Source: an uncultured delta proteobacterium
GTDB lineage: Bacteria; Desulfobacterota; Desulfuromonadia; Desulfuromonadales; BM103
Assembly: GCA_963715335.1 (NCBI GenBank)
Contig: CAVQRZ010000014.1
Span: forward strand, 128,001-192,000
Direction of reading: 5' to 3'
Length of the DNA: 64,000 bases
The number at the start of each line of letters is the position of its first letter. The first letter of the stretch is position 1. Position numbers and translations under genes: made by a program. Under the pieces are notes generated by a model. That model searched no databases, was not told the origin of the DNA, and saw only the letters and a program-made list of their open reading frames with translations. Below are positions 22,499 to 44,145 of this stretch, one piece after another.

Positions 22499-22517
22499 CC
22501 TGTACCGGAAGCCATGC

Positions 22518-24785: not shown

Positions 24786-24992
24786 CTTGTTGGCGTATTT
24801 TGTATGAAAGATTCAAAAAAAATATTCTGGAATATGCTTCCGGTATTAAGTTGTGGAGGTTATTGATAATCTCACAGTTGCCTAAAGATGTTCTTGGTAT
24901 TATTCTCATCAATGGTGTGCATGCCGGTGAACAAGATCATTCTCAAAGATGGTGATACGCTGTCGATACTTCCTTTGCTGGATGGTGGTTGA
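24759..24992 (+). CDS. MoaD/ThiS-family sulfur carrier, frameshifted
   Basis: Pieces LPKDVLGIILINGVHA and LKDGDTLSILPLLDGG* with a C-terminal di-glycine; lies upstream of AOR. Confidence 0.7.
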
Positions 24993-25060
24993 GAAAGCTT
25001 CGTTTGATTGTAGCCTGATGATGCATTAAGTATCTTATGTTCAGAATAAGGAGAGACCTG

Positions 25061-26466: not shown

Positions 26467-26555
26467 TTGTCAGGCGCCCGACTGGCGGGTAGCAACCGTC
26501 TCCAGGAGTGTCCACAAACCCGTGAGACCTTCAGGATATGGTTTTTCGCCAGGCG

Positions 26556-28568
26556 TTATTCGAGTCCGCTTTGGTTTTCATGCAAGGCATACAGAGCGGT
26601 TTCAATATAACTTAATAATTCTTTGGTCATACGCTCTTTTAATTGAACGTCGTCAATCGCCTGATACGCCGGTTCCGGTTTTAGCGTGTAACGACCCAAC
26701 CTCGCTTGAACATCAGGCTGTTTGACCAGGATCGTATCCCCTCTCAACATGGCAACGGTCTGGTCGCTCCCTGACGGTTTTATAATTCCAAACCCTTCAT
26801 CAGATGGGTCCAGCGCGAGGATATCCCTACCCCAGGACTGGTGGGTAAACGGTTTGCCAAGTAAACCGAGTATCGTGGGGATAACATCCACCTGGGTTGC
26901 AACAGTTGTTATGCTTTGACCAAATTCCTGCGTCAGTCCGGGGGCAATTAAAAGCAAGGGGACGTGAAACCTCAGCAGGTCGATATCAGAGATCTGCGGC
27001 TTTACGCCAAAGCCATGGTCCCCGAGAATTACGAAGAGCGTTTCATCGTAAAAAGGTTTGTGTCTGATGGCTTTAAAAAACTCTCCCAATGCCCAGTCTG
27101 AATATCTCATTGCGGTTAAATGTTCTGAATATTCACCCATGTCAGTCACTGCTGGAACGGGCAGGCTCTCCGGCAATGCATAGGGTGTATGATTGGACAA
27201 TGTCTGCACCATGGCAAAGAAGGGTTGCGCGGAGTCTATTTTGTCCAGTTCCTCAACGGCCCTGGAGAACATGTCTTCGTCGGAAACCCCCCAGGTTCGG
27301 TCCTGGAACTTGGGGTTGACATAATCGTGACGGCCGACAAAATTGGTTAGGCCCTGGTTGCGGAAAAACCCCTCCTGGTTATCCCAGGTAAAATCCCCGT
27401 TGTAGATATAAACGTCGTTGAACTTTTCCCTTTTCAATAAGGCCGGCAAGCCTGAGAAGGCGTTCCCCCCTTGCGGTTGTTGCATCAGGTATTCAAATCC
27501 GGGGAGATTGGGGAAGCTTGCGAAAGTCGCAAAGACACCCTGGTGGGTATGGGTGCCATTGGAGAAAAATTTCTCGAACAGCAACCCCTCTTTGGCAATT
27601 TTGTCAAATTCTGGAGTTATGCCGTAGTCATGGCCCAGGGCACCAACAAATTTGCCACTGAAGCTTTCCATTAAAATAACGACGACATTCTTTATGTTGT
27701 TGTTAACAGGAGACGTTTGCGGCTGGGATCTGCGTAAGATTTTGCGTGTCTCTGGTCTAAGTAAAACATCTCTTTCGGTTAAGATCATTTGCCTGGTTGT
27801 CTCCAGGGCTTCTCCTGCGGGGTACGAGCTTAACCATTTCTCCCCCTTGGCTTCATTGGATGCGTTCTCTGCCGCTTTTATAATGGTAAAGGTCCCGTTT
27901 AAAGCCAGATGGTTGGCAAACAGATGAGGGCTGTGAAAAGCATCTCCCCAACGCAGGGGGGGACCCGACCGGATTGTTGCACCCCTGGAACCGATGACCA
28001 ACAGCGCCAAGACCAAAACCGTTGTGGACATTCTTAGCAGGAATGGAGTGGGTTTCACGACATCGGGGGTGGTCAGTTTCGCAATGAATTTTAGGGCATA
28101 AATATAGATTCCTACCAGGACGGCCCACAGGAGCAGGTAGCGAACGACAGGAAAACCATTCCAGATCATGCTGCTTACCGTGGCGGCGTCTTCTTGTAAA
28201 TAATGAAAGGCGATACTGTTCAGGCGATTGTGAAATTCGTGGTAAAAGTCCAGTTCGACAACGCCCAGGAATATGGTTATTGCAAAGGCTGGCATCAACC
28301 ACAGAAAGGCCATCGTTCTTTTTCCCAGGCCATTTGGTAACGCCAGTGCGATGGCGAGCGGGAAGAGAATATAACAGATGATAATCAGGTCAAATCTTGC
28401 TCCGATCAGGAAGGAAACGGCAAGGTCTGAACCGGGAACGCCTTCAAGCAGTTCATTGTTTCTGATCAGCAACAAACAACGCAAAGCAGCAAACATTAAT
28501 AGTGAAAATAACGTGACGCAAAACAAGTAGCAAACATCGTAGGCCGTTTTTCCCATCTTTAGCTTCAT
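26556..28568 (-). CDS. LtaS-family (lipoteichoic acid synthase/phosphoglycerol transferase) membrane sulfatase-fold enzyme
   Basis: Five N-terminal TMs, NVVVILMESF, TPEFD, NGTHTH, TLSNHTPY, GDHG, VPLLL, QVDVIPT. Confidence 0.88.
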   Translation of the reverse strand: MKLKMGKTAYDVCYLFCVTLFSLLMFAALRCLLLIRNNELLEGVPGSDLAVSFLIGARFDLIIICYILFPLAIALALPNGLGKRTMAFLWLMPAFAITIFLGVVELDFYHEFHNRLNSIAFHYLQEDAATVSSMIWNGFPVVRYLLLWAVLVGIYIYALKFIAKLTTPDVVKPTPFLLRMSTTVLVLALLVIGSRGATIRSGPPLRWGDAFHSPHLFANHLALNGTFTIIKAAENASNEAKGEKWLSSYPAGEALETTRQMILTERDVLLRPETRKILRRSQPQTSPVNNNIKNVVVILMESFSGKFVGALGHDYGITPEFDKIAKEGLLFEKFFSNGTHTHQGVFATFASFPNLPGFEYLMQQPQGGNAFSGLPALLKREKFNDVYIYNGDFTWDNQEGFFRNQGLTNFVGRHDYVNPKFQDRTWGVSDEDMFSRAVEELDKIDSAQPFFAMVQTLSNHTPYALPESLPVPAVTDMGEYSEHLTAMRYSDWALGEFFKAIRHKPFYDETLFVILGDHGFGVKPQISDIDLLRFHVPLLLIAPGLTQEFGQSITTVATQVDVIPTILGLLGKPFTHQSWGRDILALDPSDEGFGIIKPSGSDQTVAMLRGDTILVKQPDVQARLGRYTLKPEPAYQAIDDVQLKERMTKELLSYIETALYALHENQSGLE

Positions 28569-29045
28569 TGCTGTCCCTTTTAATTCTCTATGGTTCTTTT
28601 GTAAAATTTATAACGGTTAGATCCATTGCGGCCACAGGGTCTCTTTATGAGGGCGGATGGAGACAATCCCTGTTCTGCCCCTGAAAGTGCCGCTTCGATA
28701 GCGCATCATGAACATCAGTGGCGGCGACTATTAAGTAAACCTTCTCAACAGCATGTCAAGATATTTGCATCTCCCGTGGGTTATTCTGCATGTCTTTGGT
28801 GAGCATTACGATCTCAACGCGCAGACCTTGCAGAACCTGGGGCGAAAAATTCATCTCTGGAAGTTATTTCCCAAGGGTCATGCGGGTTCTGCTGGCCGTC
28901 ATTCTCAACGATGGATTACGAAACCCCGTTAGTTTGTCACTCCGGTCGAAATTGTAAACTGTTGTTCCCTGATCAATCTATTTTTGAAATTTTCCCTTCG
29001 CGGTGTAAAAAAAGTTGGCGTCCTGCCAGCCCTTCCCGAATGTGA

Positions 29046-29251
29046 CGTACAGATATTTGTACAATTTTTCGGCGTGGATTTTTGAAAAACAATAAATCCG
29101 GCCAGTTACGCGCATGGCATGATGTCCGACTGATTCGGAAATGTGGCAATTGCAGCCTATCGTGTCCGACTGATGCAGAAATTTTCAATTGCAGTCTATC
29201 GCCGGGGGATTGTCACTTGACACTGTACCTGAATGTACCGCTTTTTGTACA
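29046..29251. promoter_or_regulatory. Two TGTACA-N6-TGTACA-like boxes in the divergent ltaS/eptA intergenic region
   Basis: CGTACAgatattTGTACA at 29046-29063 and TGTACCgcttttTGTACA at 29234-29251. Confidence 0.6.
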
Positions 29252-29254
29252 AAT
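29114..29254 (+). repeat. Copy of block 33938-34018, with an internal tandem duplication
   Basis: ATGGCATGATGTCCGACTGAT...CAATTGCAG(C/T)CTATCG unit present twice (29114-29162, 29163-29207), followed by the TGTAC box. Confidence 0.9.
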
Positions 29255-29516
29255 TACCCAAGATGATAGCTGATGGGATGCGATTGGAGCAGCAGCGATG
29301 AAGATTGTGGAACAGGCAGGATACAAGGTTGCCTGGTTGACTGGAAAAGATGAGGCGTCGCTGACGTTCAGCAGGCCAGTCTGCATGACATCAATCAATT
29401 TTCGCGCCACCAGGCTTGCTGGGAGCAGATGCATTGGCAACAGTTCCTGGATGAGTATCAAACCGCTTTGTCCGCAGCCAGGGTCGGCGCAAGTTGTCGC
29501 CGAGGTAAGGGAACCA

Positions 29517-31162
29517 ATGCGCAACAGAAGTCTTTTTCAGGAGAACACAAAGAAGTGATTGCTCAAGACAGTCTCAATAAATTCCGGCCACAGGTCAGTC
29601 TGCCCATCGTGACCTTCCTGGCGGCTTGTTTTTTCGTCAATTTGACAATCACGTTAATGATTTCCTGGCTGCCAGCCTCGGTCTTGACAAAGGCGATCAC
29701 TGGCTTTTCATGGGGCTCCTTTGGCTGTTGCTGGTCCTGGCCTTTAATCTTCTCTTTATGTTGTTGGCGTTCCGTCCGGTTTTGAAGCCCTTCCTCTGCC
29801 TGATGTTCCTGGTCGCGGCAAGCGCGAGTTATTTCACCGACAGCTTTGGCACGATCATCGACAAGACGATGATTACAATGCACTGGAAACGTATCAATGT
29901 TGACTTGTGCTGGCCCGTCAGGCTTGATGCTCTATGGCTTTGCACCGATGACCCTGCTACTGCTGACGCGCATCCGCTATCGTCCGCTGCGGCAAGAGAT
30001 GTTGACCAGAGCCGCAGTGATTGTGGGCAGCCTCGTTTTGATCGTCGGCCTAGGGTATGTAAATTTCAAGAACCTGGTCCTGTTCGGTCGTGAGCACCGG
30101 GACCTGCGCATGCTCGTCAACCCGGTCTATCCGCTCAGCTCCGTTCAGAGGGTTATCAAGAAAGAATTCTTTGCCCGGGCCAAGCAGCCCTTGCAGCCGA
30201 TGGCGAGCGACGCCACCAGGGATGCCGTCGGCAGATCAGTATTCGTGCTGGTCGTCGGTGAAACCGCGCGCTCCCAGGAGTTCGCCTTCAATGGCTATCC
30301 TCGCGATACGAATCCCTATCTGAGCCAGCGTGATGTGGTCAATTTCACGGATGTTGCTGCCTGCGGCACTTCGACCATTGAATCAGTCCCCTGCATTTTT
30401 TCGCACCTGGCGCATAGCGGTTTCAGCCGCGATAAAGCGGGGAATTTCGAGAACCTTCTGGATGTTCTGCAGCGGCTTGGCGTCAAGGTCGTCTGGCTTG
30501 ACAACAATTCCAGCAGCAAGGGGGTTGCAGATCGTGTCCAGTATAAAAATTTCCTCGAGCAGGACGCTTCGGAAGTCTGCCCGGACGGGGAATGTTACGA
30601 CGAGATCCTCCTGCAGGGCCTGGCCGCTGAAATCTCCGCATCAGATAAGACCTCCTGTTGTCTTGCATATGATCGGCAGCACGAACAGGCGTATTACAAG
30701 CGCACACCGGCTGCTTTCAAGGTCTTCCTGCCGGAATGCTCGGTTGACAATGTCCAGGATTGTTCTCAGCAGGAGATCGTGAATGCCTACGACAATACTA
30801 TTGTCTATACTGATTATGTGCTCTCAAAGGCGATAGACTTGCTCTCCGCACAGGATATCCCGGGCGCGATGCTCTATGTCTCTGACCATGGCGAATCGCT
30901 AGGCGAGAACGGGATCTACCTGCACGGGCTCCCCTATGCCCTGGCCCCCGTCGAACAGACCCGTGTCCCCATGTTGTTCTGGGCTTCCGATGACTACCTC
31001 ACCCAGAAGGAGATCGATCTGCCGATACTGCAAGGCAACAGGTCCTTATCTTACAGTCACGATAATATCTTCCACAGTATGTTAGGACTGTTCGGAGTCA
31101 AAACCGGTGCTTACCACCCTGATCTGGACCTGTTTGCCGGTTCTCACCAAAAGCGTGGCTGA
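29517..31162 (+). CDS. eptA: Lipid A phosphoethanolamine transferase, frameshifted and with a small internal deletion
   Basis: N-terminal TMs, VLVVGETAR, GYPRDTNP, CGTST..SVPCIFS, WLDNNS, NAYDNTIVYTD, YVSDHGESLGENGIYLHG, SHDNIFHS. Confidence 0.88.
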
Positions 31163-31308
31163 GATACCGACTTCGTGCAGCTGATCGGGTCGGTTAAGGC
31201 CGGCCGAAGCACCTTGTCGAGGTCCGTCATCAGAAAAGTTGGCGATACTCCCGTATTTCGGTTATCGTTGGCCAATCTGTTAAATTTCATGCCTGGACAG
31301 GGTGCCTG

Positions 31309-32587
31309 ATGGAAGAAACCACACAGACCAAGGTCTTCGCCTTCATTCAGAGCGGGCTGTTCCTGCTCCTGCTTCTTTTGCTCCTCGCTTTCAACAAAGG
31401 CCCGACTCTCATCTACGGGAGCCTTTCGCTGGTCCTGCTGATCGCTTACCACCTGATAATCGATTACCGTTTCACCCCATCCAGGCTCATGAGCTCCAAA
31501 CTGCTCAACGCCTACGTTGCCATGTCCCTGTTTTTGTGCACCCTGGTTATCTGGAGTACCAGGGTGCCAGGCCATGATGAAAGTAACTTCTGGATCGTCT
31601 ACTTCCTGCCGATAACTATCGCCGCAGCTCATCTGAAATTGAGAGGCACTCTCGTCACATGCACGGTTGCCTTCGCACTGTTTATTGCCCACCTGCCTCC
31701 GCATATGTATCTCGATCCCAGGGAGCGGGTAGAGGAATTGCCTGAACTCATCGGTTTTGGCATCATGTTCTTCTTTTTGGGGGTTCTGGTGCAGGCCTTT
31801 GCCCGGCAGAATCGTCACGAGTTGGCTATGAAACAGCAGCTTAACGATAAACTTCTGGAAAACCAGCAACGCCTCAGGGATTCCCTGGAACGGCTTGACA
31901 CCGCGGAGGAAAGTCATGAGGACCAGGGAGCGGCTTGCTTCCCTCGGTGAAATGTCGGCTGGCATAGCCCACGAAATCCGCAACCCTCTCGGGATTATCT
32001 CTTCTTCGGCACAGCTGCTTGAGCGTGAGGTCGCCAATGCGGAGGCCCGGCAACTGCTTGAAATTATCCAGGAGGAGTCAACCCGCCTGAATGGGTTGAT
32101 CACGGAGTTTCTGACCTTCGGTCGGCAGCTCGAGCCACAGCGCCAACCGTGCGACCTGGCGGCATTGACTGCGCGTATCCTTGACTCCCTGCAGAATGTG
32201 GCGCAGCAGAAGAGGGTTGCCCTTGCCCTCGATCGCGAATGCTCAACCTGCATCGCTTCCGTCGATGCCGATATGATGCAGCAGGTCCTGCTCAACCTGC
32301 TCTTGAATGCGCTGGAGGCAACCGCTCCGGGCGGCCGGGTTCGTGTTGTTTTGGAACAGTATCCGGAGCGGCTCGATATTGTGATCGACGACTCAGGTCA
32401 TGGTATCCCCGCAGAGAACCTGGCCAAGGTCTTCGACCCGTTTTTTACCACGAAGAGTGAGGGCACCGGCCTCGGCCTTGCCAATGCCTACAAGATCATG
32501 GAGAGTCATGGCGGCTCATTGAAAGTGGCCAGCCACGTCGGCCAAGGCAGTAGATTCACCGCTTCACTTCCACTGGAGGTCAGTTGA
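31309..32587 (+). CDS. Membrane-embedded sensor histidine kinase, one frameshift near 31910
   Basis: About 6-TM N-terminus followed by IAHEIRNPL, NLLLNA, DSGHG, FDPFFTTK, GTGLGL. Confidence 0.88.
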
Positions 32588-33957
32588 ATGGCTCACATCC
32601 TGGTTGATGATGATGAAAAAATTACCGGTTTGTCCTGGCGAAACTTCTGACTGACGATGGCCACCGGGTCTCAGTTGCCGAGAACCCGTTTGCAGCCCTC
32701 GAACTGCTGGGCCGTGAAGATGTTTCGCTGATCCTTTCCGACCTGAGGATGCCGAACATGGACGGCATGGTGTTTCATCAGCGCGTTGTGGAAGATTACG
32801 GTGATATACCGTTTATTATCATGACCGCCTTCGCGACCGTGGAAACTGCCCTGCAGTCGATGAAGGCCGGAGTCTTTGATTACCTGATGAAACCTTTCAA
32901 GAATGAGGAGATTCTGGTAGTGGTCGAAAAGGCTCTCGGTTTTGCCAGGCTTCGGACTGAAAACACCCTGTTGAGACGACAGCTAGATGCGGGTAACGGC
33001 AGCGAAATCATCGGCCAGAGCGCGGCCGTTCGGCAGCTCCTCCAGGAGATCAAACAGGTCGCGCCTGCGCCGACGTCTGTTCTGATCACTGGTGAGAGCG
33101 GCACCGGCAAAGAACTGGTTGCCAGGGCGTTGCATCACTCCAGCCCCAGGCAGAGTGCTGCACTGGTGGCGGTCAATTGCGCCACCTTCGCCGAGAACCT
33201 GCTCGAGAGCGAGTTGTTCGGTCATGAACGCGGGGCCTTCACAGGGGCCACTGAGCGCAAGCGTGGTCTGCTCGAGATGGCCGACGGCGGCACCTTGTTT
33301 TTAGATGAAATAGGCGAGATGCCTTTGCCCCTTCAGCCCAAGCTGCTGCGCCTGCTGCAGGAGAAACGCTTCAGGAGAGTCGGCGGTACTGCGGAAATCG
33401 AATGTGATGTACGCGTGGTGGCTGCGACCAACCGGGATCTGAAGACCCTGATCGCGGCAGGGCAGTTTCGAGATGATCTCTATTACCGTCTCAACGTGGT
33501 AACCTTGAATATCCCGCCGCTGCGGGAAAGAGCAGAAGACATACCGTTGTTGGCCCTGTTCTTTGTGCGACGTTATGCCCGGGAGTTGGGCCGGCCGGTT
33601 AGCGGATTTGCCGCCGAGACGCTGCAACTGCTGCAGCAGTATGCATGGCCCGGCAACGTTCGCGAACTGCAGAACATCATTGAACGGGGCGTACTGTTCT
33701 GCAGCGGCGATCAATTTACGCCGCAGGAGCTGCCGTTGTCCCTGCAAGGAGCTGTTGCCGATTCAACTGAAACCAGATTGAAAACACCGGAACTCGGTAA
33801 GCCATTACCCGAGCTCCTCGATAAAGTTGAATCAGACCTGATCCAGCGGGCCATGATTCAGGCCCGCGGGGTCCAGGCCCGGGCTGCGAGGTTGCTGGGC
33901 ATCAGTCGCAGTAACCTGCAGTACAAGTTGCGCAAATATGGCATGATGTCCGACTGA
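32588..33957 (+). CDS. NtrC/AtoC-family sigma-54 response regulator, frameshift near the 5' end
   Basis: MAHILV-DDE start, SDLRMP, GESGTGKE, GAFTGA, WPGNVREL and a Fis-type HTH. Confidence 0.92.
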
Positions 33958-34018
33958 TGCAGAAATTTTGCAATTGCAGTCTATCGCCGGGGCATTATGT
34001 ACAGCTTTTTGTACAAAA
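33938..34018 (+). repeat. Regulator 3' end plus palindromic box TGTACAgcttttTGTACA (33998-34015); second copy at 29114-29254
   Basis: Direct sequence comparison of the two blocks. Confidence 0.88.
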
Positions 34019-34067
34019 TGCCCCGGGTTTTTATTTAAAACGTAATGATTCAAGCGTCTTAACCTGT

Positions 34068-34083
34068 TGGCACAGCTGCTGCA
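34068..34083 (+). promoter_or_regulatory. Sigma-54 promoter of the YceI-PKS operon
   Basis: TGGCAC-AGCTG-CTGCA with exact GG-N10-GC spacing, about 50 bp downstream of the TGTACA palindrome. Confidence 0.7.
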
Positions 34084-34275
34084 TCGTAACAGCTGACGAG
34101 ATGTTCCGTGCCGGTGTTCTGAGCTGCCTGGACAAGCCATTCGACAATCAGGCATATTGACTCTGGTCGCCGATATTTTGTTGCAGCGACCCGAGACCTT
34201 GTGTGTGGCACGGAACGGTCTTGAAGATCAACCATTTATCAATAAAGATGTTTTCCAGAAGGAGCCTGTGACCTC

Positions 34276-34896
34276 ATGAAGCTGCGTATTTGGATCATCA
34301 GTATTGCCGCCGTTCTTAGCCTTGCCATCTATGCAGAGGCAATACCCCTGGATGGAGAGTGCTCCATCCGGTTTTTTGGTAAATCGACCCTGCATGATTT
34401 CGCAGGTCAGGCTGTCTGCCAACCCTTTGTGCTGCAGACCGAAGATCAGGAATCGGGCCGTCAGGTGGTTCGGCAGCAAGTGGTGACTGTTCTGGTCAGT
34501 GAGATGGACACTGACAATGAAGGGCGTGACAAGAAGATGCGGGGCATGTTTGACAGCACAAACTTCCCCGAGATCAAGGGCCACTTCGCTGACCTTGAAC
34601 CGGAAGTGGTTCTCGAACAACTCAAGGCGGCCGAAAACGGGCAGGGGAATCTTGAGTTCGATTTGCAGATCCGGAAGATCACACAACACATCAAGGCCAA
34701 AACCAGTCGGTTGACGATCACCCCGGAACAGATAGTATTCACCATGGAGTTCCCACTGTCGTTGGCCAGTTTCGAACTCAAGCCGCCAAGCGTGATGGGT
34801 ATAATCCGCGTGGCTGACGACGTGCAGGTTGAGGTTCAAACCACCCTGTATCGCCAGCCCTCCGCTAAAGGATCGGCGGCCGAGAAGGAGCAATGA
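34276..34896 (+). CDS. YceI-like exported lipid/polyisoprenoid-binding protein
   Basis: Signal peptide; F.GKSTLHDFAG, MDTDNEGRDKKMR, FPEI, FELKPPS...RVADDV. Confidence 0.8.
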   Translation: MKLRIWIISIAAVLSLAIYAEAIPLDGECSIRFFGKSTLHDFAGQAVCQPFVLQTEDQESGRQVVRQQVVTVLVSEMDTDNEGRDKKMRGMFDSTNFPEIKGHFADLEPEVVLEQLKAAENGQGNLEFDLQIRKITQHIKAKTSRLTITPEQIVFTMEFPLSLASFELKPPSVMGIIRVADDVQVEVQTTLYRQPSAKGSAAEKEQ

Positions 34897-34897
34897 T

Positions 34898-36058
34898 ATG
34901 TCTGTCTGGATCCAGCACATCGAAACCATGAATCCTGGAGTGGCCTATTCGCAGGAATATGCCAGCAGGAAGATGCAGGAATGGACTGAGGATGACCGCC
35001 TCAAGCGCATGACCAGGATTCTTTACAAGAAATCCGGTATCGATCGTCGATATAGCGTGATCACATCTTTCGACCAGAATCTGCCCGGAGATTTTTTCCC
35101 TCTCGACGATGGTGGCAAAAGGCGTGAACTCTCCACTGCCGAACGCAATGCCATCTATACCCGGGAAGCCCACGGACTGTCCGTCGATCTGGCGCGCAAG
35201 ACGATTGAAGGCTGCCCCGGTGTCGAGGCAGAGGATATAACCCATGTGATTACAGTCTCCTGTACCGGTTTCTGCAATCCCGGGCCCGATTACCATATCG
35301 TCAACGATCTTGGCCTGTCCCATGCGACGCAACGTTATAACCTCGGCTTCATGGGTTGCTATGCGGCTTTCCCCGGGTTGAGAATGGCCCGGCAGTTCTG
35401 CGAGGCCAACCCGGAAGCTGTTGTGCTGGTGCTGTGCCTTGAACTCTGCAGCCTGCATCTGCAACTCAACGATCGCGAAGATTCGATGCTGGCCAATTCG
35501 CTCTTCTCCGATGGCGCCGCGGCTGTGATTGTCAGCGCCCGCCCGCCTGAGCCGACCCAGTCAGCTTATCGATTCGGTCATTTTCATTCGTCCCTGGTCC
35601 CCAGCGGCAGGGCCGACATGGCCTGGACCATAGGCGATCTCGGTTTCGACATCGCCCTGTCAAGCTACGTGCCGAAGATCATCGGCGCCAATATCCGCGA
35701 AGCGATCAAGCCGGTCCTCGCTTCGCGCAGTCTTGGCCTTGAAGATATCGGAACCTGGGCGGTCCATCCCGGCGGTAAGGCGATTGTCGACAAGGTGGCT
35801 GAAAGTCTTGACCTCAGTGACCCGCAAGTCGCCGCCTCGCGTAAGGTTTTGCGCGAGTACGGCAACATGAGCAGTGTCACGATCCTGTTCGTCCTGCGCG
35901 AAATATTGCACCGCAAAGATGCCCCGCTCACAGAGGATATCTGTGCCATGGCATTCGGCCCGGGGTTGACTGTCGAGATGGGACTGTTGGAGGCACAACG
36001 TTATCGTCAGGGAATAAACGTGGTCAGACCGCATGAGGTCGAACCGGTCCTGGCGTGA
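34898..36058 (+). CDS. Type III polyketide synthase (chalcone synthase-like)
   Basis: Catalytic Cys-His-Asn triad: FMGCYAA, WAVHPGG, YGNMSS; also VSCTG, ELCSLH, LFSDGAAA, AFGPGLT. Confidence 0.95.
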   Translation: MSVWIQHIETMNPGVAYSQEYASRKMQEWTEDDRLKRMTRILYKKSGIDRRYSVITSFDQNLPGDFFPLDDGGKRRELSTAERNAIYTREAHGLSVDLARKTIEGCPGVEAEDITHVITVSCTGFCNPGPDYHIVNDLGLSHATQRYNLGFMGCYAAFPGLRMARQFCEANPEAVVLVLCLELCSLHLQLNDREDSMLANSLFSDGAAAVIVSARPPEPTQSAYRFGHFHSSLVPSGRADMAWTIGDLGFDIALSSYVPKIIGANIREAIKPVLASRSLGLEDIGTWAVHPGGKAIVDKVAESLDLSDPQVAASRKVLREYGNMSSVTILFVLREILHRKDAPLTEDICAMAFGPGLTVEMGLLEAQRYRQGINVVRPHEVEPVLA

Positions 36059-36082
36059 TATTGACTGAGACGGAATAAACCC

Positions 36083-38362
36083 TTGTCAGGATTGCCAAAG
36101 ATAATGCCATGGCTGTTGACCCGCGGCCGGACTCCGGCCCTGCTGGTACTGGTCTGCCTGACCTTGTTTATGTCGGTGTTTGCCAGTCAGCTCCGTGTCG
36201 AGCAGGAGCCACACTCGATGGTTTCAAGTCAATCCGGGCAATTGGCCACTTATGACAGGTTCCGTGATCTGTTCGGCAATGACGAAGACCTGCTCTTGAG
36301 TGTCACGCATCCGCAATTACTTGAACCGGTCGGTCTGGCGATCATTGCCGGTCTGACTGAACGGCTTGCGGGTTTCGCAGGCGTACGACATGTCTTGAGC
36401 CTGAGCAACGCCCGACAACTGGTTTCAGGTCGATATGGTGCCGAGGATGTTCCCCTTCTGCCCGACCGGGCCAGCACCGAAGATTTGACAGCTGCGGTCG
36501 GGACCGCACTTGAGAGGAACCCCCAATATGAAGGATTGCTGATTTCGCGGGACCGGCGCACAGCGGGGCTGCTTGTCGAACTGGATGATCACCGCGGCGA
36601 TGTTGCGCAAAGGCACCGTCTGATCAGTCAGATCCGGGCCATGATGAACGACCTGGAAGGGCAGGCGGAGCTTCATCTGACCGGGGTCGGGGTACAGAAG
36701 ATCGATGTGGCTGATTACGTGCAACGCGATCAGCAGATCGTCCTGCCTCTGGTCGTGGTGGTCCTGGCTTTCATGCTGGCCATAATCTTTCGTCGTCCCT
36801 CCGGAATCCTGCTGCCTTTGCTGGCGACCATGGTCAGCCTGGTCTGGACGATGGGCTTCTATGCCTTGTGCGGATTCGAACTGAACATTATAACCTCACT
36901 GCTGCCACCGGTGGTTATGGTGCTCGCGATCTCGAACAGCATCCACCTTTATAACGGCTGGTTGCACCTGGAAGATGATGACAGCCAACGGGTCGAAAAA
37001 ATCGTCGCCAAGGTCGGAGAGCTCTTTCTGCCCTGTCTTTTTACCGCGTTAACGACCGCTCTTGGCCTGATTTCGTTGACCATAAGTGCGGTGCCGGCCG
37101 TTCGTCAATTTGCCCTGTTCGCTGCCGTCGGGGTGCTTGTTTCCCTGCTGGTCAGCCTGACCCTGGTTCCGATCGGCATGAGTTTCCTGCCTTTGCCAGG
37201 GCGACATTTCCGAACCGGGACCGGTCTGTTGAGGGTGGTCCTGGAGAGGATCGCGAATCTTACCGTGAATTCCCCTCGCGCTATCATGCTGGTTGCGCTG
37301 CTGTTGCTGGCCGTGACCATGTTCGGCCTGCCCCGGCTGCAAAACAACACCGATATGGTCGGTTTCCTGCGCTCTGATGCACCCCTGGCCATTGACACCA
37401 GGTACATCGATCGGCAACTGGCCGGTGTGAATACCATAGAGTACATGCTCGACAGGAAAGACGGCCGGGCCCTGGAATCCCCTGGCGATTTTTCCCGGTT
37501 GGCACAATTCGAGGCTTACGCCAGGTCTCGAGAACCGGTGGCCAACGTCTATTCGATCCTGACTTTATTGCGCCAGGTCCACCGTGCCGAGACCGATGGT
37601 GCGCTGTCGCAACTGCCTGCTGACCCTGATCAGCTGCGTTATGAATTCGACCTGATGGCCATGGCACCGGACCAGTCCATGCAGAGGCGATTTTTGGCTC
37701 CTGATCGGGCAACGGCCCGGGTCAGTGTCTGGCTGCACGACATCGGCAGTCGAAAAACCGCCGACGTCGTTGATGACCTCGATGCGTACGGCAGCACGCT
37801 CTTCGGCGACGGTTACCGGTTGACTCCAACCGGCAGCTTTTACCAGTTGACCCAGGATTCAAACCGCCTGGTCGCAGACATGCTCAAGAGTTTCGCTCTC
37901 TCACTCTCATTGGTCATGCTGGCAATCCTGGTGTTGCTCCGTTCACCCAGGCTGACTCTGCTGGCAATGATCCCGAACCTTATCCCGATCCTCTGGACCT
38001 TTGGTCTCATGGGCCATTTCGGTATTGACCTGAGCACCGGGACCGCGATGATCGGAGCGGTCGTCATCGGCCTGGCCGTTGATGACACCATCCATTACCT
38101 GGTGCACTACCGACGTGTCTACGCCGGGGTCGTCAGCAAGGCGGTGACCGAGACCACCACCCGGATCGGTCGGGCTCTGATGATTGCAACGCTGGTTTTA
38201 GCTTGCGGTTTCTGGGTCGGCTGTCTTGGCAGTTTCAAGCCGACGATCTACTTTTCATTTCTGGTCGGGGGAACGCTGTTCGGGGCTTTGATCTGTGATC
38301 TTCTGGTACTGCCTGCCTGCCTGATGCTCGGCTGCCCGACCCGCCGCGAGGCCGCCTCATGA
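36083..38362 (+). CDS. MMPL/RND-family lipid exporter
   Basis: Two repeats of TM - periplasmic loop - 5 TM; LAISNSIH, TALTTALG, IGLAVDDTIHY. Confidence 0.9.
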   Translation: MSGLPKIMPWLLTRGRTPALLVLVCLTLFMSVFASQLRVEQEPHSMVSSQSGQLATYDRFRDLFGNDEDLLLSVTHPQLLEPVGLAIIAGLTERLAGFAGVRHVLSLSNARQLVSGRYGAEDVPLLPDRASTEDLTAAVGTALERNPQYEGLLISRDRRTAGLLVELDDHRGDVAQRHRLISQIRAMMNDLEGQAELHLTGVGVQKIDVADYVQRDQQIVLPLVVVVLAFMLAIIFRRPSGILLPLLATMVSLVWTMGFYALCGFELNIITSLLPPVVMVLAISNSIHLYNGWLHLEDDDSQRVEKIVAKVGELFLPCLFTALTTALGLISLTISAVPAVRQFALFAAVGVLVSLLVSLTLVPIGMSFLPLPGRHFRTGTGLLRVVLERIANLTVNSPRAIMLVALLLLAVTMFGLPRLQNNTDMVGFLRSDAPLAIDTRYIDRQLAGVNTIEYMLDRKDGRALESPGDFSRLAQFEAYARSREPVANVYSILTLLRQVHRAETDGALSQLPADPDQLRYEFDLMAMAPDQSMQRRFLAPDRATARVSVWLHDIGSRKTADVVDDLDAYGSTLFGDGYRLTPTGSFYQLTQDSNRLVADMLKSFALSLSLVMLAILVLLRSPRLTLLAMIPNLIPILWTFGLMGHFGIDLSTGTAMIGAVVIGLAVDDTIHYLVHYRRVYAGVVSKAVTETTTRIGRALMIATLVLACGFWVGCLGSFKPTIYFSFLVGGTLFGALICDLLVLPACLMLGCPTRREAAS

Positions 38363-38994
38363 CGCGGTCGTTTTTGACGTTACTGTTGACCTTCGCAGTG
38401 ATCTCATCCTCCTGGGCCGGAGAACCTCGACAGGGCCGCTTGGCGGCCCTGCTCGAAACGGCCAATGACCAGGTCGTTCATCGTGTCGTAGTTCCATCGA
38501 CCGAACAGCCGCAGGGCGAGGTCCAGTTGCTCCGACGTAACAACCTGCTGGTTGTCCGTACTCTCCTGGCCAGCCGGGTCCTGAAACGTGTCGGCGCAAC
38601 CATCGATGCAAGGGAACGCCGCAACTGGCCTGAATCCCGGGATGGCCACGCGGCATCGGTTCGTTACCGGGACGAGCTGTTCCGGGCCGTCGAACAGGCC
38701 TGGGAAAGGTTTCGCCAACGCACTGATCCGGGCGAAACCCGCCAGTTTCTGTCTATAGAATTCATTCTTGCAGGCGACAGTGCAGCCATCGCACTGTCGC
38801 TGCCAAGCCTTGAGGGTGATTATGGCCGTCTGACATTACTTAGCCAGGAGAATATCCAGGCATGGAAGGTTTCACGGAGTTATGTGCGGGGCAATATTCT
38901 TGAAATTGTGCAGGACAGTTTTCACCTCGATGAGTCGGCGGCCTCTGCATTGCTTGCTCCGCTTTGGCCCGACGGCGACCGTGCCGAACGCTAA
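38359..38994 (+). CDS. Exported hypothetical protein
   Basis: Signal peptide MTRSFLTLLLTFAVISSSWA; ATGA overlap with the MMPL stop (translational coupling). Confidence 0.75.
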   Translation: MTRSFLTLLLTFAVISSSWAGEPRQGRLAALLETANDQVVHRVVVPSTEQPQGEVQLLRRNNLLVVRTLLASRVLKRVGATIDARERRNWPESRDGHAASVRYRDELFRAVEQAWERFRQRTDPGETRQFLSIEFILAGDSAAIALSLPSLEGDYGRLTLLSQENIQAWKVSRSYVRGNILEIVQDSFHLDESAASALLAPLWPDGDRAER

Positions 38995-39054
38995 CAGGAT
39001 CTGACCTGTCCGGGGGATTACAGCTGTAGCATCAACCTGAGAATTGAGGGCCAT

Positions 39055-39801
39055 GTGGCAACAAACAGTAAGTTTTCCCTGAAGATCAGGGATTATATAA
39101 ATACTCCGGAGCGCAAGCGAGAATACAACGAACAGCATTTCGGTGAGGCGGCCCGGCACTATGATCTTGCCACTCGAGCCATGTCGCTGGGACGAGATAT
39201 GGCCTGGAAACGGAAGCTCGTTGCCGCTCTACCGAGGTTCCCGGCACCGGTCTGTGTCGATCTTGCCTGTGGTACCGGTGACGTCACCCTGCTTTTGGCC
39301 GACAAGTATCCTGCCGGCCGTGTTATCGGCATAGATCTGACCGAGTCGATGCTGAAGCTGGCCAGGCAGCGCAGCCAGGCAGGCAATGTCGAGTTCCTTC
39401 ATCAGGATATGGGTGCGACCGGTCTGCCGGATGAACTGGCGGACATTGTTACAGGCAGCTATGCCGTACGCAATGCCCCGGAATTTCACCAGGCTTTTGT
39501 TGAAATCCATAGAATTCTCAGGCCGGGTGGATTTGTCGCCTTGCTCGATTTTTCGAAATCTCCGAAGCCCTGGTTGCAAAAGCTGCAGCTCTTCGTCCTG
39601 AAATACTGGTGCGGTCTGTGGGGGTTGATCCTGCACCGCAACCCCGAAGTGCATTCCTACATCGCTGCCAGTCTGAAAAGTTTTCCGGATCGCATCCGGT
39701 TGCACGACCAGCTGCAGGAATGCGGTTTTGCAATCAGTTATTCGAAACGCTTTTACCTGGGGACAGTGGAGCTGCTTGTGCTGCAGAAACCGGGGATATA
39801 G
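39055..39801 (+). CDS. UbiE/MenG-like class I SAM methyltransferase
   Basis: F...ARHYD, MSLGRD..WK, VDLACGTGD, RILRPGG, LDFSK. Confidence 0.85.
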   Translation: MATNSKFSLKIRDYINTPERKREYNEQHFGEAARHYDLATRAMSLGRDMAWKRKLVAALPRFPAPVCVDLACGTGDVTLLLADKYPAGRVIGIDLTESMLKLARQRSQAGNVEFLHQDMGATGLPDELADIVTGSYAVRNAPEFHQAFVEIHRILRPGGFVALLDFSKSPKPWLQKLQLFVLKYWCGLWGLILHRNPEVHSYIAASLKSFPDRIRLHDQLQECGFAISYSKRFYLGTVELLVLQKPGI

Positions 39802-39931
39802 CCTGTGGCGTAACCGGGGAGCGCAGATGGATTGCAGGTCGTCTGAAAAACGATAGTTTCTCGGAACAGTCAGGCGCGCCTCACTGACATATGTCGAAAA
39901 TCAGTAAAATTCATGAAGCTTAGGTACCCTT

Positions 39932-41479
39932 TTGTCAAAACAACCCGTGAAGCATGACGTAATCATCGTTGGCGCCGGGCCGGTCGGTTTGACAATCGCC
40001 AACCTCCTGGGCCTCTACGGTGTCCGGACTCTTGTCCTGGAGAAAGAACTCCTGGCCCCGGACGCGCCCCGCGCGGTGTCTCTCGATGACGAGAGCCTGC
40101 GTATCTGGCAGCAGTGCGGGTTGCTCAAGGAGATGACCCCCTTTATCGCTGAGGGCGAGGAAGGGGATTTGGTCTTCACCTATCGCACCCGGTCCGGGCG
40201 GGCGATCTTCAGCATGGCCCAGCGCGGCCGTCCCTATGGCTATGCCCGGGGCAACGTGTTCCTGTTCCATCGCGTTCTGGAAGTGTTGAGGGCAGGAATC
40301 GAGCGCTTTGCCCATGTCGAACTTCGCACCGGCTGGTCTGCCCGAAGCTGCAGCCAGGATGAAGGGTGTGTCCAACTGGCTGCGCGTGATCAGGACGGGG
40401 CGTTGCAGAACCTCACCGCAAGCTACCTGGTCGGCTGCGATGGTGGCCGCAGCACGGTTCGGAACGCCCTGAACATACCGATGCAGGGCTCCGCCTATGC
40501 CGAGGCCTGGCTGATCGTCGACACCTTCACCCCCGATCTCGCTGAACAGCCGGTTCGGCAAGGTGTCGAAGTCTGGTGCGACAAACGATGCCCGACGGCA
40601 AGTATCCCGTTGCCCGGCGGCTATCGGCGCTGGGAATTCCTGTTACGCGAAGATTTGAGTGCTGCGGGTTGCCTAGATGATGACCGGATCCGGTCGCTTA
40701 TAGAGCAGCGCACACCTCTCGGTCATGCCAGGATCGTGCGCCACCTGGTGCACACCTACAAAGGGAGCGTGGCGGAACGTTACGGCGTGGGCCGTGTCTT
40801 CCTGGCTGGCGACGCTGCCCATCTTTCCCCGCCATTTGCCGGACAGGGTCTGGCCACAGGTTTGCGGGATGCGGTTAATCTATGCTGGAAGCTTGCGTAT
40901 GTGCTGCGCGGCGTGGCGTCCCCTGATCTGCTGCACAGTTATCAACGGGAACGTCGGCCACATCAGCTCACGATGCTCCGGTTGGCCAGGCGGATGGGGA
41001 AGATGATGATGCCAAGAACCCGTCTCCAGGAAGTTATGGTCGTTGCCCTGTTTGCCTTGGCCGGTCGTTTCAGATGGTTAAGGCAATCGATGGAGATTCG
41101 GGGGGCGAATGTCACCCCGGTCTACGCCGAACGGGGAAAGGTGAAAAGCGGAAAGACCGGGCACTACCTGATTCAGCCAGGGGTTGGAAACCATGGGTTG
41201 CTCGATGATCTGCTCGGCCTGAATTACGCTGTGGTCAGCTTTGACAGGCCAGCGCAAGAGGCCTTAAGTGCCCAGGAGTTGCAGTCCTGGCAGCGTTGCG
41301 GAGCCACATTCGTTTGGCTGCGGCCCGAGGGTCAAACCGCTGAGGCTTTCCTGGCCTTCCAAGACTGGCTTGGCGATTGTCGATGCCGCCTGCTGATCGT
41401 CAGGCCGGACCGCTTTGTCAGTGATGATCGTGTCCTGCCCGAGCTGGCAGCTGATACAAGTCTGGAGCTGTCGGCCTGA
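39932..41479 (+). CDS. Group A FAD-dependent aromatic monooxygenase (MhpA-like)
   Basis: GAGPVG, PRAVSLDDE, VGCDGGRS, RWEF, LAGDAAH..PFAGQG, SYQRER, IVRPDRFV. Confidence 0.9.
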   Translation: MSKQPVKHDVIIVGAGPVGLTIANLLGLYGVRTLVLEKELLAPDAPRAVSLDDESLRIWQQCGLLKEMTPFIAEGEEGDLVFTYRTRSGRAIFSMAQRGRPYGYARGNVFLFHRVLEVLRAGIERFAHVELRTGWSARSCSQDEGCVQLAARDQDGALQNLTASYLVGCDGGRSTVRNALNIPMQGSAYAEAWLIVDTFTPDLAEQPVRQGVEVWCDKRCPTASIPLPGGYRRWEFLLREDLSAAGCLDDDRIRSLIEQRTPLGHARIVRHLVHTYKGSVAERYGVGRVFLAGDAAHLSPPFAGQGLATGLRDAVNLCWKLAYVLRGVASPDLLHSYQRERRPHQLTMLRLARRMGKMMMPRTRLQEVMVVALFALAGRFRWLRQSMEIRGANVTPVYAERGKVKSGKTGHYLIQPGVGNHGLLDDLLGLNYAVVSFDRPAQEALSAQELQSWQRCGATFVWLRPEGQTAEAFLAFQDWLGDCRCRLLIVRPDRFVSDDRVLPELAADTSLELSA

Positions 41480-41488
41480 CTGTTGAGG

Positions 41489-42112
41489 TCAGGGTTTGTC
41501 CGCTGCGCGTGGCAGCCGCTCACTTTTGTGGGTTAAAACCCTGCCCAGCCCGAGCAGACCGACCACGGTGAAAAAGACTCCTCGCCATTTCACCGGTTGT
41601 TTCCCTTCACTCAGAAAGATCACATCTTCGGCTACGTCGAGGCCTGTCTGCTGGGCCAGTTTCAGAAGTTTCTGCTGGTTCCCTCTGACGATGAGGCCAG
41701 CAACCAGCATACCGGTGATCTCGCGCTGCCCTTTGAATGTCCCCGCATGCTTTTGACGGAAGGCCTGTTTCTCCGGGATCGTATCGGTGAAGAAATGGTA
41801 GTCCTTGAAGAGTTGCAGAAGTTCGGGGTCGCGGGTTTCCACCATGACCCGGATCCGTTCCTGGTCGGGATGGGGCACGAGGGGGACCAGGAGGGCTTCC
41901 ATTGCTACGGAGCCGGAAGTCGAGATCGCCCGGTCCAGGTCCAGGTAGCCGGCTGCTACGCTCAGCCATTCCTGCGGCGCGCCGCTGTCCTCCAGTTGGC
42001 TGATCGTGACTGGTTGTGGCGACTGGTTGTTGAACCAGAGCAGCAGGTCGTTGCCACCGAGATAGAGCAGGACCAGGCAGATGGCGATCAGGGTGAATCG
42101 AAAACGTTTCAT
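41489..42112 (-). CDS. Hypothetical membrane protein (N- and C-terminal TM segments)
   Basis: 207-aa ORF with hydrophobic ends, co-oriented with and downstream of actP. Confidence 0.7.
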   Translation of the reverse strand: MKRFRFTLIAICLVLLYLGGNDLLLWFNNQSPQPVTISQLEDSGAPQEWLSVAAGYLDLDRAISTSGSVAMEALLVPLVPHPDQERIRVMVETRDPELLQLFKDYHFFTDTIPEKQAFRQKHAGTFKGQREITGMLVAGLIVRGNQQKLLKLAQQTGLDVAEDVIFLSEGKQPVKWRGVFFTVVGLLGLGRVLTHKSERLPRAADKP

Positions 42113-42149
42113 ATGTTAGTTCCGAAGTTGGGATGTCCCCGCCAAACAC

Positions 42150-42186
42150 AAAGAGAGGGGCTGCCGGAGCAGCCCCTCCACTCTTT
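42150..42186 (-). terminator. Terminator hairpin downstream of actP
   Basis: GAGGGGCTGC-CGGA-GCAGCCCCTC, a perfect 10-bp stem. Confidence 0.75.
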
Positions 42187-42213
42187 ACAATGTTTCTATC
42201 AATGATGCAAGGA

Positions 42214-44145
42214 TCAGGCTTCTGCGCCTTCCTCGATCATGGCCCCCTTCTTCTGGGTAACCAGGGAAACGAGAACCAGGGCGATGAAGCTGGCCGGGAT
42301 CGAGATGGCGGCCGGACTGTTGAAGGCAACCGGTGCGTCCTGCGGCAGCAGACCGTATCGGACCCACATGTCCGGCGAGACCAGGATCAGGCCGAGAGAA
42401 GATGTCAGACCGATCAGAATTGACGCAGCGACGCCCTGGGCCGTGGTCTTCTTCCAGAACAGGATCATCAGGATCGCCGGCAGGTTCGCCGATGCGGCGA
42501 CTGCGAAGGCCCATCCGACCAGGAAGGAAACATTCATCCCTTCGAAGATGATGCCGAGGTAGATAGCGATAGCACCGATGACCATGGCCGAAATCTTTCC
42601 GGCCCTGACTTTGCCTTGCTCGGTCATGTTCATGCCGAAGAAGTTGTCCATCAGGTCGTGTGCTACCGCGCCGGCCGATGCGACAATCAGTCCGGATACG
42701 GTGCCGAGCACCGTAGCGAAGGCCAGTGACGAAATGACTGCGAAAAGGACGACCCCGAAGGAGAGGGCCAGCAACGGTGCCGACATGTTGTTGTCGGTGA
42801 TGTTGATGACGCCGTTGGTCATCGCGCCGAGACCGAGGTACAGGGTCAGGATGTAGAAGAAACCGATTGCGGCGATGCCGACGATGGTCGATTTACGCGC
42901 AGCCGCCTGGCTCGGAACCGTGTAGTAGCGGATCAGGATGTGAGGCAGCGCTGCAGTCCCGCAGAACAGGGCGAGCATCAGCGAGATGAAGTTGAATTTT
43001 TCCAGGCCGGTTGCGTTGTCGACCTTGAACTTCAGGCCGGGGCGCAGGATGCGGCTGCCGGGAGTTGGCTTCTGATAGTAGATGGTGGTCGTGGCATCAC
43101 CAACCTTGACGTACTTTTTGCCCCAGAGCACCACGGTGCTCTCCTTGAAGCGATTCAGAAACTCCAGCGGGCCGACCGCACCGGTCTGGGCAATTTCCTT
43201 GCCGTCGACTTTGATTTCCTTGATGTGACCGACCGCATAAAACTTGCCGTCCTCTTTGGGTGCACCGTTGAACAGCTTGGTGCCATCGGCCAGTTCGGTC
43301 GTGTAAAGGGCCTCGGCCAGTTCGAAGCCGCCAGCCGGGTTTTCCTTGAGGTGCCAGACGGTTTCGTTGCCGTCCTTGGCCAGCTTGACGAAGCCGGCTT
43401 TACCGAATTCGGAGTCAAGCCCGTCAACCACAGCATAGCCTGGCACTTGCAGCTCACCGTTGGCGACAACGGCCTGCAGGTCCTGGAACTTGTGGTACTC
43501 CTTGGTGCCGCCCTGATTGGGCTCGGTGCCCAGGCCACGGAACAGCACCAGGCCGACGACGATGGTTGAGCAGATCAGGAGCAGTGCGCCCTTGAAGAAC
43601 TGCACGTAGGTGGTTGAGGCCATGCCGGCCGTCGCAACGATGATCGTTACCACCACACCGACAATGCAGACGCCGACCCAGTGCGGCATGCCGAGCAGAG
43701 GCTGAACCAGGACGCCGGCGCCGACCATCTGCGGGATCAGGTAGAAGACCGAGATGGCCAGAGTTGAAATCGCAGCCATGAGCTGGATCGCTTTGGAGTT
43801 GAACTTGGAGTCGAGAGCGTCGGTGAAGGTGTACTTGCCAAGGCGCTTCATCGGTTCGGCGACCAGGAAGAGGGCGACCATCCAGCCGGCCAGGTAGCCG
43901 ATCGAATACATCCAGCCGTCGAAACCGGCGGTTGCGATCATGCCGCAAATACCGAGGAAGGATGCTGCCGAGAGGTAGTCGCCAGCGAAGGCAATGCCGT
44001 TGGTGAACCAGTGGATGTTGCCGCCGGCGGCGTAGTAGCCGGCAGCCGAGGTGGTTCGGCGTGCCAGGTAGAACGACAGGCCGAGGACAAACAGGACAAA
44101 CATGACGAACAGGCCGATGGCCAGAGGTGATTGTGTGTATATCAT
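42214..44145 (-). CDS. actP: Cation/acetate symporter (SSS family) with a large soluble loop
   Basis: YYAAGG, AGDYLSAASFLG, YLIPQMVGAG, GTAALPHILIRYYTVP, AFAVAASAN. Confidence 0.92.
   Translation of the reverse strand: MIYTQSPLAIGLFVMFVLFVLGLSFYLARRTTSAAGYYAAGGNIHWFTNGIAFAGDYLSAASFLGICGMIATAGFDGWMYSIGYLAGWMVALFLVAEPMKRLGKYTFTDALDSKFNSKAIQLMAAISTLAISVFYLIPQMVGAGVLVQPLLGMPHWVGVCIVGVVVTIIVATAGMASTTYVQFFKGALLLICSTIVVGLVLFRGLGTEPNQGGTKEYHKFQDLQAVVANGELQVPGYAVVDGLDSEFGKAGFVKLAKDGNETVWHLKENPAGGFELAEALYTTELADGTKLFNGAPKEDGKFYAVGHIKEIKVDGKEIAQTGAVGPLEFLNRFKESTVVLWGKKYVKVGDATTTIYYQKPTPGSRILRPGLKFKVDNATGLEKFNFISLMLALFCGTAALPHILIRYYTVPSQAAARKSTIVGIAAIGFFYILTLYLGLGAMTNGVINITDNNMSAPLLALSFGVVLFAVISSLAFATVLGTVSGLIVASAGAVAHDLMDNFFGMNMTEQGKVRAGKISAMVIGAIAIYLGIIFEGMNVSFLVGWAFAVAASANLPAILMILFWKKTTAQGVAASILIGLTSSLGLILVSPDMWVRYGLLPQDAPVAFNSPAAISIPASFIALVLVSLVTQKKGAMIEEGAEA

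Follow-up and report, generated by a model that had tools for sequence, protein, structure and literature searches.

We asked what is made by a six-gene cluster built around a type III polyketide synthase (PKS) in an uncultured deltaproteobacterium of the Desulfuromonadales (lineage BM103), and which of its genes belong together. The cluster lies at 34276-41479 on the + strand of a 64,000-nucleotide stretch of contig CAVQRZ010000014.1 (assembly GCA_963715335.1, positions 128,001 to 192,000), hereafter the window, whose coordinates are used throughout. An earlier note on this DNA had read the locus as a sigma-54-driven operon for a methylated alkyl(hydro)quinone that would be exported as a barrier lipid or as a redox shuttle. 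Comparison with related genomes identifies a conserved unit of four functions: a YceI-family protein, the type III PKS, a UbiE-like methyltransferase and one presumed hydroxylase. The hydroxylase, a flavoprotein here, is replaced by a U32-family protein in some of the relatives, an exchange seen outside the window itself.

The six co-oriented open reading frames (ORFs) are all unbroken, and family scans agree with the names given to them earlier. The first encodes a YceI-family lipocalin (34276..34896, +; PF04264, E 2e-10) with a signal-peptide-like N-terminus, a predicted periplasmic lipid carrier. One base separates it from the PKS gene (34898..36058, +; PF00195/PF02797). There follow an MMPL/HAE3-like RND transporter with 12 predicted transmembrane segments (36083..38362, +) and, joined to it through an ATGA overlap, an exported protein (38359..38994, +) with a signal-peptide-like N-terminus, no Pfam match and a predicted chalcone-isomerase (CHI/FAP) fold. 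The last two genes encode a UbiE/MenG-like class I S-adenosylmethionine (SAM) methyltransferase (39055..39801, +; PF01209) and an MhpA-like group A flavoprotein monooxygenase (39932..41479, +) with GxGxxG, DG and GD motifs. An Rfam search of 28500-42500 gave no match. Convergent on the monooxygenase gene, a 207-amino-acid (aa) protein without a Pfam match is encoded at 41489-42112 on the - strand; elsewhere it adjoins the cluster only in genome G002.

A survey of 233 genomes of the order at E <= 1e-60 found the PKS in 51. At E <= 1e-90, no orthologue was present in 200 genomes sampled from five families outside the order, families that should include the model Geobacter lineages. Records matching the 38359-38994 protein came from Desulfuromonadales, Geopsychrobacteraceae or deltaproteobacterial metagenome-assembled genomes. 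Loci were fetched from 50 of the 51 PKS genomes and from G004; among these 51 genome loci, YceI was present in 48, the PKS in 51 and the methyltransferase in 44, most absences being contig ends. The genes thus co-occur in other genomes. The six-gene architecture described earlier does exist elsewhere, but it is not a fixed unit: all six genes occur in 13 of the 51 loci, and the gene order of the window in five. Among 94 clusters spanning PKS to methyltransferase (duplicates kept), the transporter and the CHI-fold protein occurred together in 40, the CHI-fold protein alone in 6 and the transporter alone in 5. The export module is therefore optional, since the remaining 43 have neither gene.

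The hydroxylase position behaves as an exchangeable slot with three kinds of occupant: the window-type monooxygenase of 500 aa, a flavoprotein of 400 aa that is ~30% identical to it, and a U32 protein of 426 aa. Slot genes were searched for genome-wide in all 233 genomes. Among the 51 with the PKS, the window-type monooxygenase was found in 16, the 400-aa flavoprotein in 20 (partial in G101 and G103) and the U32 protein in 13; G006 has both flavoproteins, and G007, G104 and G161 have no slot gene. The other two genomes with a close U32 gene are G048 and G139, in which the cluster is cut by contig ends. An intact U32 gene and a flavoprotein gene never shared one of the 51 genomes, against 8.9 expected (Fisher p 1e-9, a value that overstates the effect because related genomes do not count as independent samples). 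Close orthologues of the window monooxygenase were confined to PKS-bearing genomes (17/17, one of them a relic). Of six complete clusters with an empty slot, three are in genomes that hold the U32 gene elsewhere (G049, G177, G178) and one in a genome that holds the monooxygenase (G015), with neither in G007 and G104.

Gene remnants record the exchange in both directions. G017 carries an intact U32 gene together with a 462-nt relic of an internally deleted monooxygenase gene, and G066 carries the monooxygenase together with a U32 relic of 33 codons (99 nt). The PKS trees were a quick tree and a FastTree tree; on the quick tree, built from 85 rows, 80 of them labelled, with outgroups and stop-containing rows excluded, the slot state changes at least 7 times. 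In loci L086-L100, the U32 genes nest with those of window-like clusters while the PKS falls within the clade of the 400-aa flavoprotein, a discordance that would be expected under gene replacement. The reciprocal remnants and this discordance, read from gene sequences, show that the slot gene has been exchanged repeatedly.

The association of U32 with the pathway extends beyond these genomes. Of 80 metagenome loci fetched through their U32 gene, 70 contained the PKS or the methyltransferase. Four genomes that have a close U32 gene and belong to other classes were fetched, and all four had the arrangement YceI-PKS-U32-methyltransferase; the source names of close U32 genes include Geothermobacter hydrogeniphilus, Deferrimicrobiaceae and Planctomycetota. 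Three proteins are U32-UbiE domain fusions. In one of the 80 loci (L152), the U32 gene is followed by a gene for a chorismate mutase-DAHP synthase fusion. A second PKS clade, ~30% identical to the PKS of the window, has U32 in L160-L162 and L211 and a flavoprotein in L233.

The slot protein, of the putative iron-sulfur type, scores above the cut-off of its family (PF01136, 42.2 bits against 22.4), and its structural model best matches the U32 protein 5d88 (E 5e-13). Seven cysteines (C180, C184, C212, C216, C364, C367 and C370) are invariant in 56/56 rows, in a pattern of C-x3-C-x27-C-x3-C plus a C-terminal four-Cys group. Ubiquinone synthesis uses flavin hydroxylases with O2 and UbiU/UbiV without O2, the latter with prephenate (PMC10990095; PMC5727448); U32 comprises twelve subfamilies, most of them uncharacterised, and prephenate-dependent hydroxylation has been predicted in further pathways (PMC10990095). 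By this analogy, we consider it plausible, though somewhat short of an even bet, that a widespread, so far uncharacterised polyketide-quinone pathway exists in two interchangeable versions, one O2-dependent, as in the window, and one O2-independent, in which a new U32 subfamily would hydroxylate the alkylresorcinol ring, probably with prephenate. The window's own genome has no member of the slot subfamily, and its two U32 genes are of other kinds.

More distant U32 paralogues (30-47% identity), left out of the counts, occur mostly in operons with LuxC/LuxE, B12 radical SAM or FabF genes. In locus L210 (G258:C39), YceI and MMPL genes precede a FabF-like ketosynthase, two tandem U32 genes and a B12 radical SAM gene; the tandem proteins, a UbiU/V-like pair, are 45-47% identical to the slot protein, and the locus combines a different lipid pathway with the same carrier set. 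Outside the class, L213, L215-L217 and L221 have distant U32 genes, single or tandem, behind a run of LuxE/LuxC acyl-reductase and aconitase-like genes, a run that is annotated in L213 and looks alike in the other four.

Oxygen lifestyle was considered as the driver of slot choice and dropped. Haem-copper oxidase subunit I (COX1) is encoded in 53/56 genomes tested, including that of the window, so that the earlier description of an anaerobic deltaproteobacterium was incomplete. Its presence does not separate U32-type from flavin-type hosts, so oxygen lifestyle does not explain which hydroxylase is used.

We then considered what the conserved enzymes might make. The PKS has the catalytic triad Cys154-His290-Asn323, intact as described earlier, and Trp243, all four residues being invariant in 85/85 aligned orthologues (active-site residues after PMC6274091). 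Trp243 aligns with chalcone synthase Gly256, a site tied to ArsB Trp281 indirectly, via Pks18 Leu266 (PMC7064976). From the triad, Trp243 and characterised relatives, the PKS would form a 5-alkylresorcinol by condensation of three malonyl units onto a long-chain acyl starter. The monooxygenase carries all flavin motifs (PF01494, E 1e-60) and stays below both PRK06183 cut-offs (428 against 546; 364 against 390). The regiochemistry of MhpA matches hydroxylation next to an alkyl chain. Hydroxylation beside the chain, as in hierridin B, which is 4-hydroxylated (PMC10896814; PMC6836626), is predicted here. The MhpA-like enzyme would hydroxylate, with O2, the ring position flanked by a phenol OH and the alkyl chain, yielding a para-hydroquinone; in relatives, this step may fall to the other flavoprotein or to the Cys-rich U32 protein, which probably needs no O2 and might take the oxygen atom from prephenate.

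The methyltransferase scores below both curated cut-offs (155.3 against 158.35 for TIGR01934; 172.6 against 216), and its best solved matches are Coq5, CouO and NovO-type C-methyltransferases. The true MenG is on contig C39, and two copies elsewhere in the genome score more strongly than the cluster protein. By these scores, the cluster methyltransferase is a UbiE paralogue and not the housekeeping MenG, and it would C-methylate the quinol ring. The previously proposed logic of PKS, ring hydroxylase and C-methyltransferase holds, and we regard this chemistry as probable, more so than any single physiological role. That the cluster makes a ring-methylated alkyl-hydroxybenzoquinone lipid, with the slot flavoprotein or U32 protein adding a ring hydroxyl, is the product assignment we lean towards, with a little more than even confidence.

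Among other clusters, locus L022 has a PigE-like class III aminotransferase gene (5813-7183) between the methyltransferase and monooxygenase genes, which hints at an aminated product variant, and L028 has a PEMT/ICMT-like methyltransferase gene (11413-12153) after the UbiE-like gene, a possible O-methylation step. A separate, ordinary type III PKS (~33% identity) is present in other genomes of the order (L168-L175); in L172 and L174, the gene after it is annotated as ICMT-type (BpsAB-like).

Several observations weigh against this assignment. It is built on genes, synteny, slot exchange and a promoter footprint, from which the product chemistry is predicted. DquA, which has the same Trp, makes only pyrones (PMC9827899), and myxobacterial clusters also yield alkylpyrones (PMC12766979). 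The slot evidence has its own weak points: three of the 51 PKS genomes have neither slot type; L082 carries U32 together with a monooxygenase gene cut by the contig end; the 80 metagenome loci cannot reveal a flavoprotein elsewhere in the genome; and the phylogenetically independent test is weak, with five pairs on starred branches, nearly all one way (sign test p 0.06). The failure of COX1 content to tell U32-type from flavin-type hosts is a further point on this side, as is the U32 cysteine spacing, which differs from the CX6CX15-16CXnC and UbiV motifs (UbiU/UbiV patterns in 10.1101/587956). PMC10990095 describes direct hydroxylase activity of the U32 proteins RlhA and TrhP as so far undemonstrated, in vitro assays being still to come. 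Finally, genes next to the cluster offer no clue to its physiological role, and the activator gene upstream is broken in this assembly.

Some of these points would suit a phenolic lipid that is not a quinone, either an alkylpyrone or an alkylresorcinol in methylated form, with a stiffening effect on the envelope and with slot enzymes that modify another position or are loosely attached to the pathway. DquA would be the precedent, the genomes without a slot gene would be accounted for, planctomycete co-expression gave methylation only (PMC10896814), and a phosphoethanolamine transferase gene adjoins the cluster in the window and in G002. We judge such a product quite improbable: a single slot is nearly always filled by one of three redox enzymes that are unrelated to each other, two of which belong to known families of aromatic hydroxylases, and U32-UbiE fusions exist.

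We next turned to the non-enzymatic genes. An AlphaFold2 model of the 38359-38994 protein had a pLDDT of 88.8. In a structure search of 48,161 chains, the top seven were CHI-domain chains (best AtFAP1, Z 8.1, root-mean-square deviation (rmsd) 3.7, 136 aligned residues) and the next unrelated chain reached Z 5.2. A second VIA run gave CHI-domain chains in its top 23 rows; over both runs these hits had Z 6.5-8.1, which is borderline, with an rmsd of about 4 and 4-11% identity. Foldseek at E 0.001 returned no match to the model, an Atlas search likewise returned no named family, and none of 51 family members matched Pfam. A predicted complex of the transporter and the CHI-fold protein had a weak score of 0.43 against 0.15 for the best control, with at least 96% of contacts shared between runs and a partner pLDDT of at least 79. 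In a benchmark, the mark used was reached by 116 of 157 solved pairs and 2 of 215 mismatched ones, with only 18 solved pairs and both mismatches among the passes at 0.60 or under. These models suggest that the CHI-fold protein is likely a periplasmic lipid-binding partner of the exporter. A role as a PKS partner, as in CHS-CHIL, was set aside, homologues of the protein beginning with signal-peptide-like segments.

YceI proteins bind ubiquinone-8 (PMC9113575). YceI is the likely carrier that takes the lipid across the periplasm, with help from the transporter and the CHI-fold protein in roughly half of the clusters. What the lipid does there is the least supported step; at oxic-anoxic boundaries, it might buffer the redox state of the envelope or protect it as an antioxidant. 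Such a role fits best because an exported YceI protein belongs to the core and because nearly all hosts (the 53/56 above) encode haem-copper oxidases.

The same chemistry could instead supply the inner membrane with an alternative respiratory quinone that couples to these oxidases, like the actinobacterial polyketide quinones (precedent in PMC9927152 and PMC12329547). The UbiE-type methylase and quinone-binding YceI would fit, as would the oxidase content and the 43 clusters that manage with no exporter. We nevertheless consider this role unlikely, since the genome owns futalosine menaquinone genes as well as MenG, the cluster is patchy (51/233 genomes), annotated loci show no adjoining respiratory genes, and the signal peptide on the near-universal YceI points outward.

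That the product leaves the cell as an electron shuttle to Fe(III) or electrodes, one of the roles suggested in the earlier note, appears very improbable. The window cluster does include an exporter, and the genome encodes 27 ORFs with at least 3 haem motifs, 9 of them with at least 8. A long-chain product, however, would be poorly soluble, the exporter is absent from about half of the clusters, and annotated loci show no cytochrome genes adjoining the cluster. The presence of haem-copper oxidases in the hosts and the lack of an orthologue in the 200 genomes of five outside families make the shuttle unlikely. An envelope redox or antioxidant lipid remains the role we prefer.

We also examined the claim of sigma-54 control. 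A -24/-12 promoter of the form GG-N10-GC (TGGCAC-N5-CTGCA; 34068..34083, +) precedes the YceI gene. The number of such matches in the window is not above chance (5 against 2.9 expected; 17/100 shuffles reach 5). The site is, however, kept in place together with a palindrome ~55 bp upstream in all 13 aligned sequences, namely the window and 12 related loci with an adjacent kinase/activator pair; the score of each relative is reached by 1-43 of 500 shuffles. The predicted enhancer, or activator-binding, region (33958..34015) contains a conserved TGCA-N7-TGCA-like site and the palindrome TGTAC-N8-GTACA at 33998-34015; GTAY...TGTAC is invariant across the 13 sequences, and the pattern matches three places genome-wide, one of them palindromic. 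Judged by positional conservation with the regulator pair, the sigma-54 site upstream of YceI is genuine. This part of the claim stands, but the cluster is not sigma-54-driven in general. The regulator pair was found in 12 of 86 loci with upstream sequence, and sigma-54 control cannot be the rule because a strong -24/-12 site (9 of 10) lies within 450 nt of YceI in only 3 of the 74 loci without the pair. In 9 of the 12 pair-bearing loci, the monooxygenase gene is upstream of the regulators and hence outside that operon. Scans for sigma-70 promoters and terminators gave chance-level results.

The regulators themselves are damaged in this assembly, which the earlier note did not report. The membrane sensor histidine kinase (31309..32587, +; four predicted transmembrane segments, HisKA, HATPase) has a one-base frameshift near 31915 and is intact in two congeneric genomes. 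The NtrC-type sigma-54 activator (32588..33957, +; receiver, AAA+ with its GAFTGA motif present, Fis helix-turn-helix) has a one-base frameshift in an A-run near 32615-32620, its frame being open from 32749. Just behind the promoter, a deletion of ~380 bp (junction 34094..34101, by blastn against G002) has removed a small single-domain receiver gene, of which an ORF is present in 11 of 12 relatives. Contigs of related strains lacked the kinase lesion in 3/4 runs and the activator lesion in 2/4. Since only 3 of 129 comparable genes are frame-broken genome-wide, the lesions are local and reflect either decay or poor assembly of this region.

Decay of this kind would leave the operon silent or mis-regulated in this strain, which is compatible with the proposed chemistry. 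It is favoured by the consecutive frameshifts in kinase, activator and eptA, by the receiver deletion and by the low genome-wide rate of broken genes, yet none of the six biosynthetic genes is broken, the lesion in the activator sits in an A-run, typical of sequencing error, and the related contigs, though of other strains, are intact in 2-3 of 4 runs. A silent or mis-regulated operon is accordingly doubtful in our view, though not negligible.

Further upstream, at 29563-31162, lies a gene for an EptA phosphoethanolamine-lipid A transferase of the MCR-related family; it carries several frameshifts, whereas the G002 copy is intact. At 29045-29560, there are two to three partial copies of the activator-tail/enhancer region 33938-34023, followed by a decayed receiver-like ORF; one copy matches G002 slightly better (92%) than it does the region at 33938-34023 itself (90%), and the array may be a decayed duplication or a mis-assembly. 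A sulfatase-fold LTA-synthase-like gene lies at 26556-28568. The block 18200-28600 has a lower GC content (38-53%), is mostly unmatched in the fetched G002 and G004 regions and contains several broken genes, among them a split Cache-domain kinase, a truncated periplasmic binding protein and an aldehyde ferredoxin oxidoreductase fragment.

If the proposed pathway is right, these bacteria would have a route to a quinone-like lipid without oxygen, and U32 chemistry would be seen for the first time on a polyketide. Polyketide quinones would extend beyond actinobacteria, and the Desulfuromonadales would possess a second redox lipid, of non-isoprenoid type, with YceI and a bacterial CHI-fold protein as its carriers, which would give that bacterial chalcone-isomerase-fold family a role. 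The flavin/U32 swap also suggests at once which substrate to try and supplies its own positive control, the window monooxygenase defining the expected product for the U32 version.

The methyltransferases SrsB and PkqB of known alkylquinone operons are of the ICMT type. Those operons, SrsABC of Streptomyces griseus and PkqABC of Mycobacterium smegmatis and Streptomyces sp. MNU77 (PMC9927152; PMC12329547), resemble the cluster in combining a methyltransferase and a flavin hydroxylase with a type III PKS that has the resorcinol-type Trp; they give alkylbenzoquinones (PMC9927152). BpsB and DquB are likewise ICMT-type (PMC9827899). In contrast, the window methyltransferase is a soluble class I UbiE-like C-methylase with no ICMT match, YceI is part of the core, the transporter and CHI-fold protein are optional, and the hydroxylase can be swapped for U32 (13/51 genomes).

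Operons with a PKS, a SAM methyltransferase and an FAD oxidoreductase are also found in picocyanobacteria (HidABC), planctomycetes (methyltransferase-oxidoreductase-PKS) and Deinococcus (PKS-methyltransferase-FAD protein). The window differs from HidABC-like operons in gene order and gene set. Among the named relatives examined, the PKS of Deinococcus radiodurans comes closest (49% identity). The flavoprotein of that operon shares 35% identity with the 400-aa slot enzyme, but the methyltransferase there is of another subfamily (E 7e-4 over 77 aa), the gene order differs, and no YceI, MMPL or U32 gene lies alongside. The pentacistronic operon of 'Saltatorellus ferox' Poly30, compared by description only, combines a lipoprotein, a lipid/isoprenoid-binding protein, methyltransferases and a type III PKS and makes C15/C17 alkylresorcinols and their methyl forms; its description mentions no hydroxylase or exporter (PMC10896814). 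cepAB of 'Entotheonella' pairs a PKS with Trp at the same site with a MenG-like methyltransferase and gives resorcinols, pyrones and autoxidised quinones in vitro, but consists of two genes, without hydroxylase or carrier (PMC7064976).

The closest parallel to the slot is ubiquinone synthesis, in which flavin-dependent UbiI/H/F with O2 and the U32 proteins UbiU/UbiV without O2 serve the same hydroxylation step (PMC10990095). There the hydroxylases coexist, whereas the slot alternatives of the cluster exclude each other between genomes. Compared with UbiU/UbiV, RlhA and TrhP, the slot protein is a single divergent U32 with another cysteine spacing, tied to a polyketide. The accessible part of PMC12766979 contains no U32 or YceI, and a literature search, with subscription journals mostly not covered, turned up neither a description of this cluster nor a study that joins U32 to a type III PKS. 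What is new beside the known alkylquinone operons is the flavin/U32 exchange, and it is this exchange that carries the main interest of the locus.

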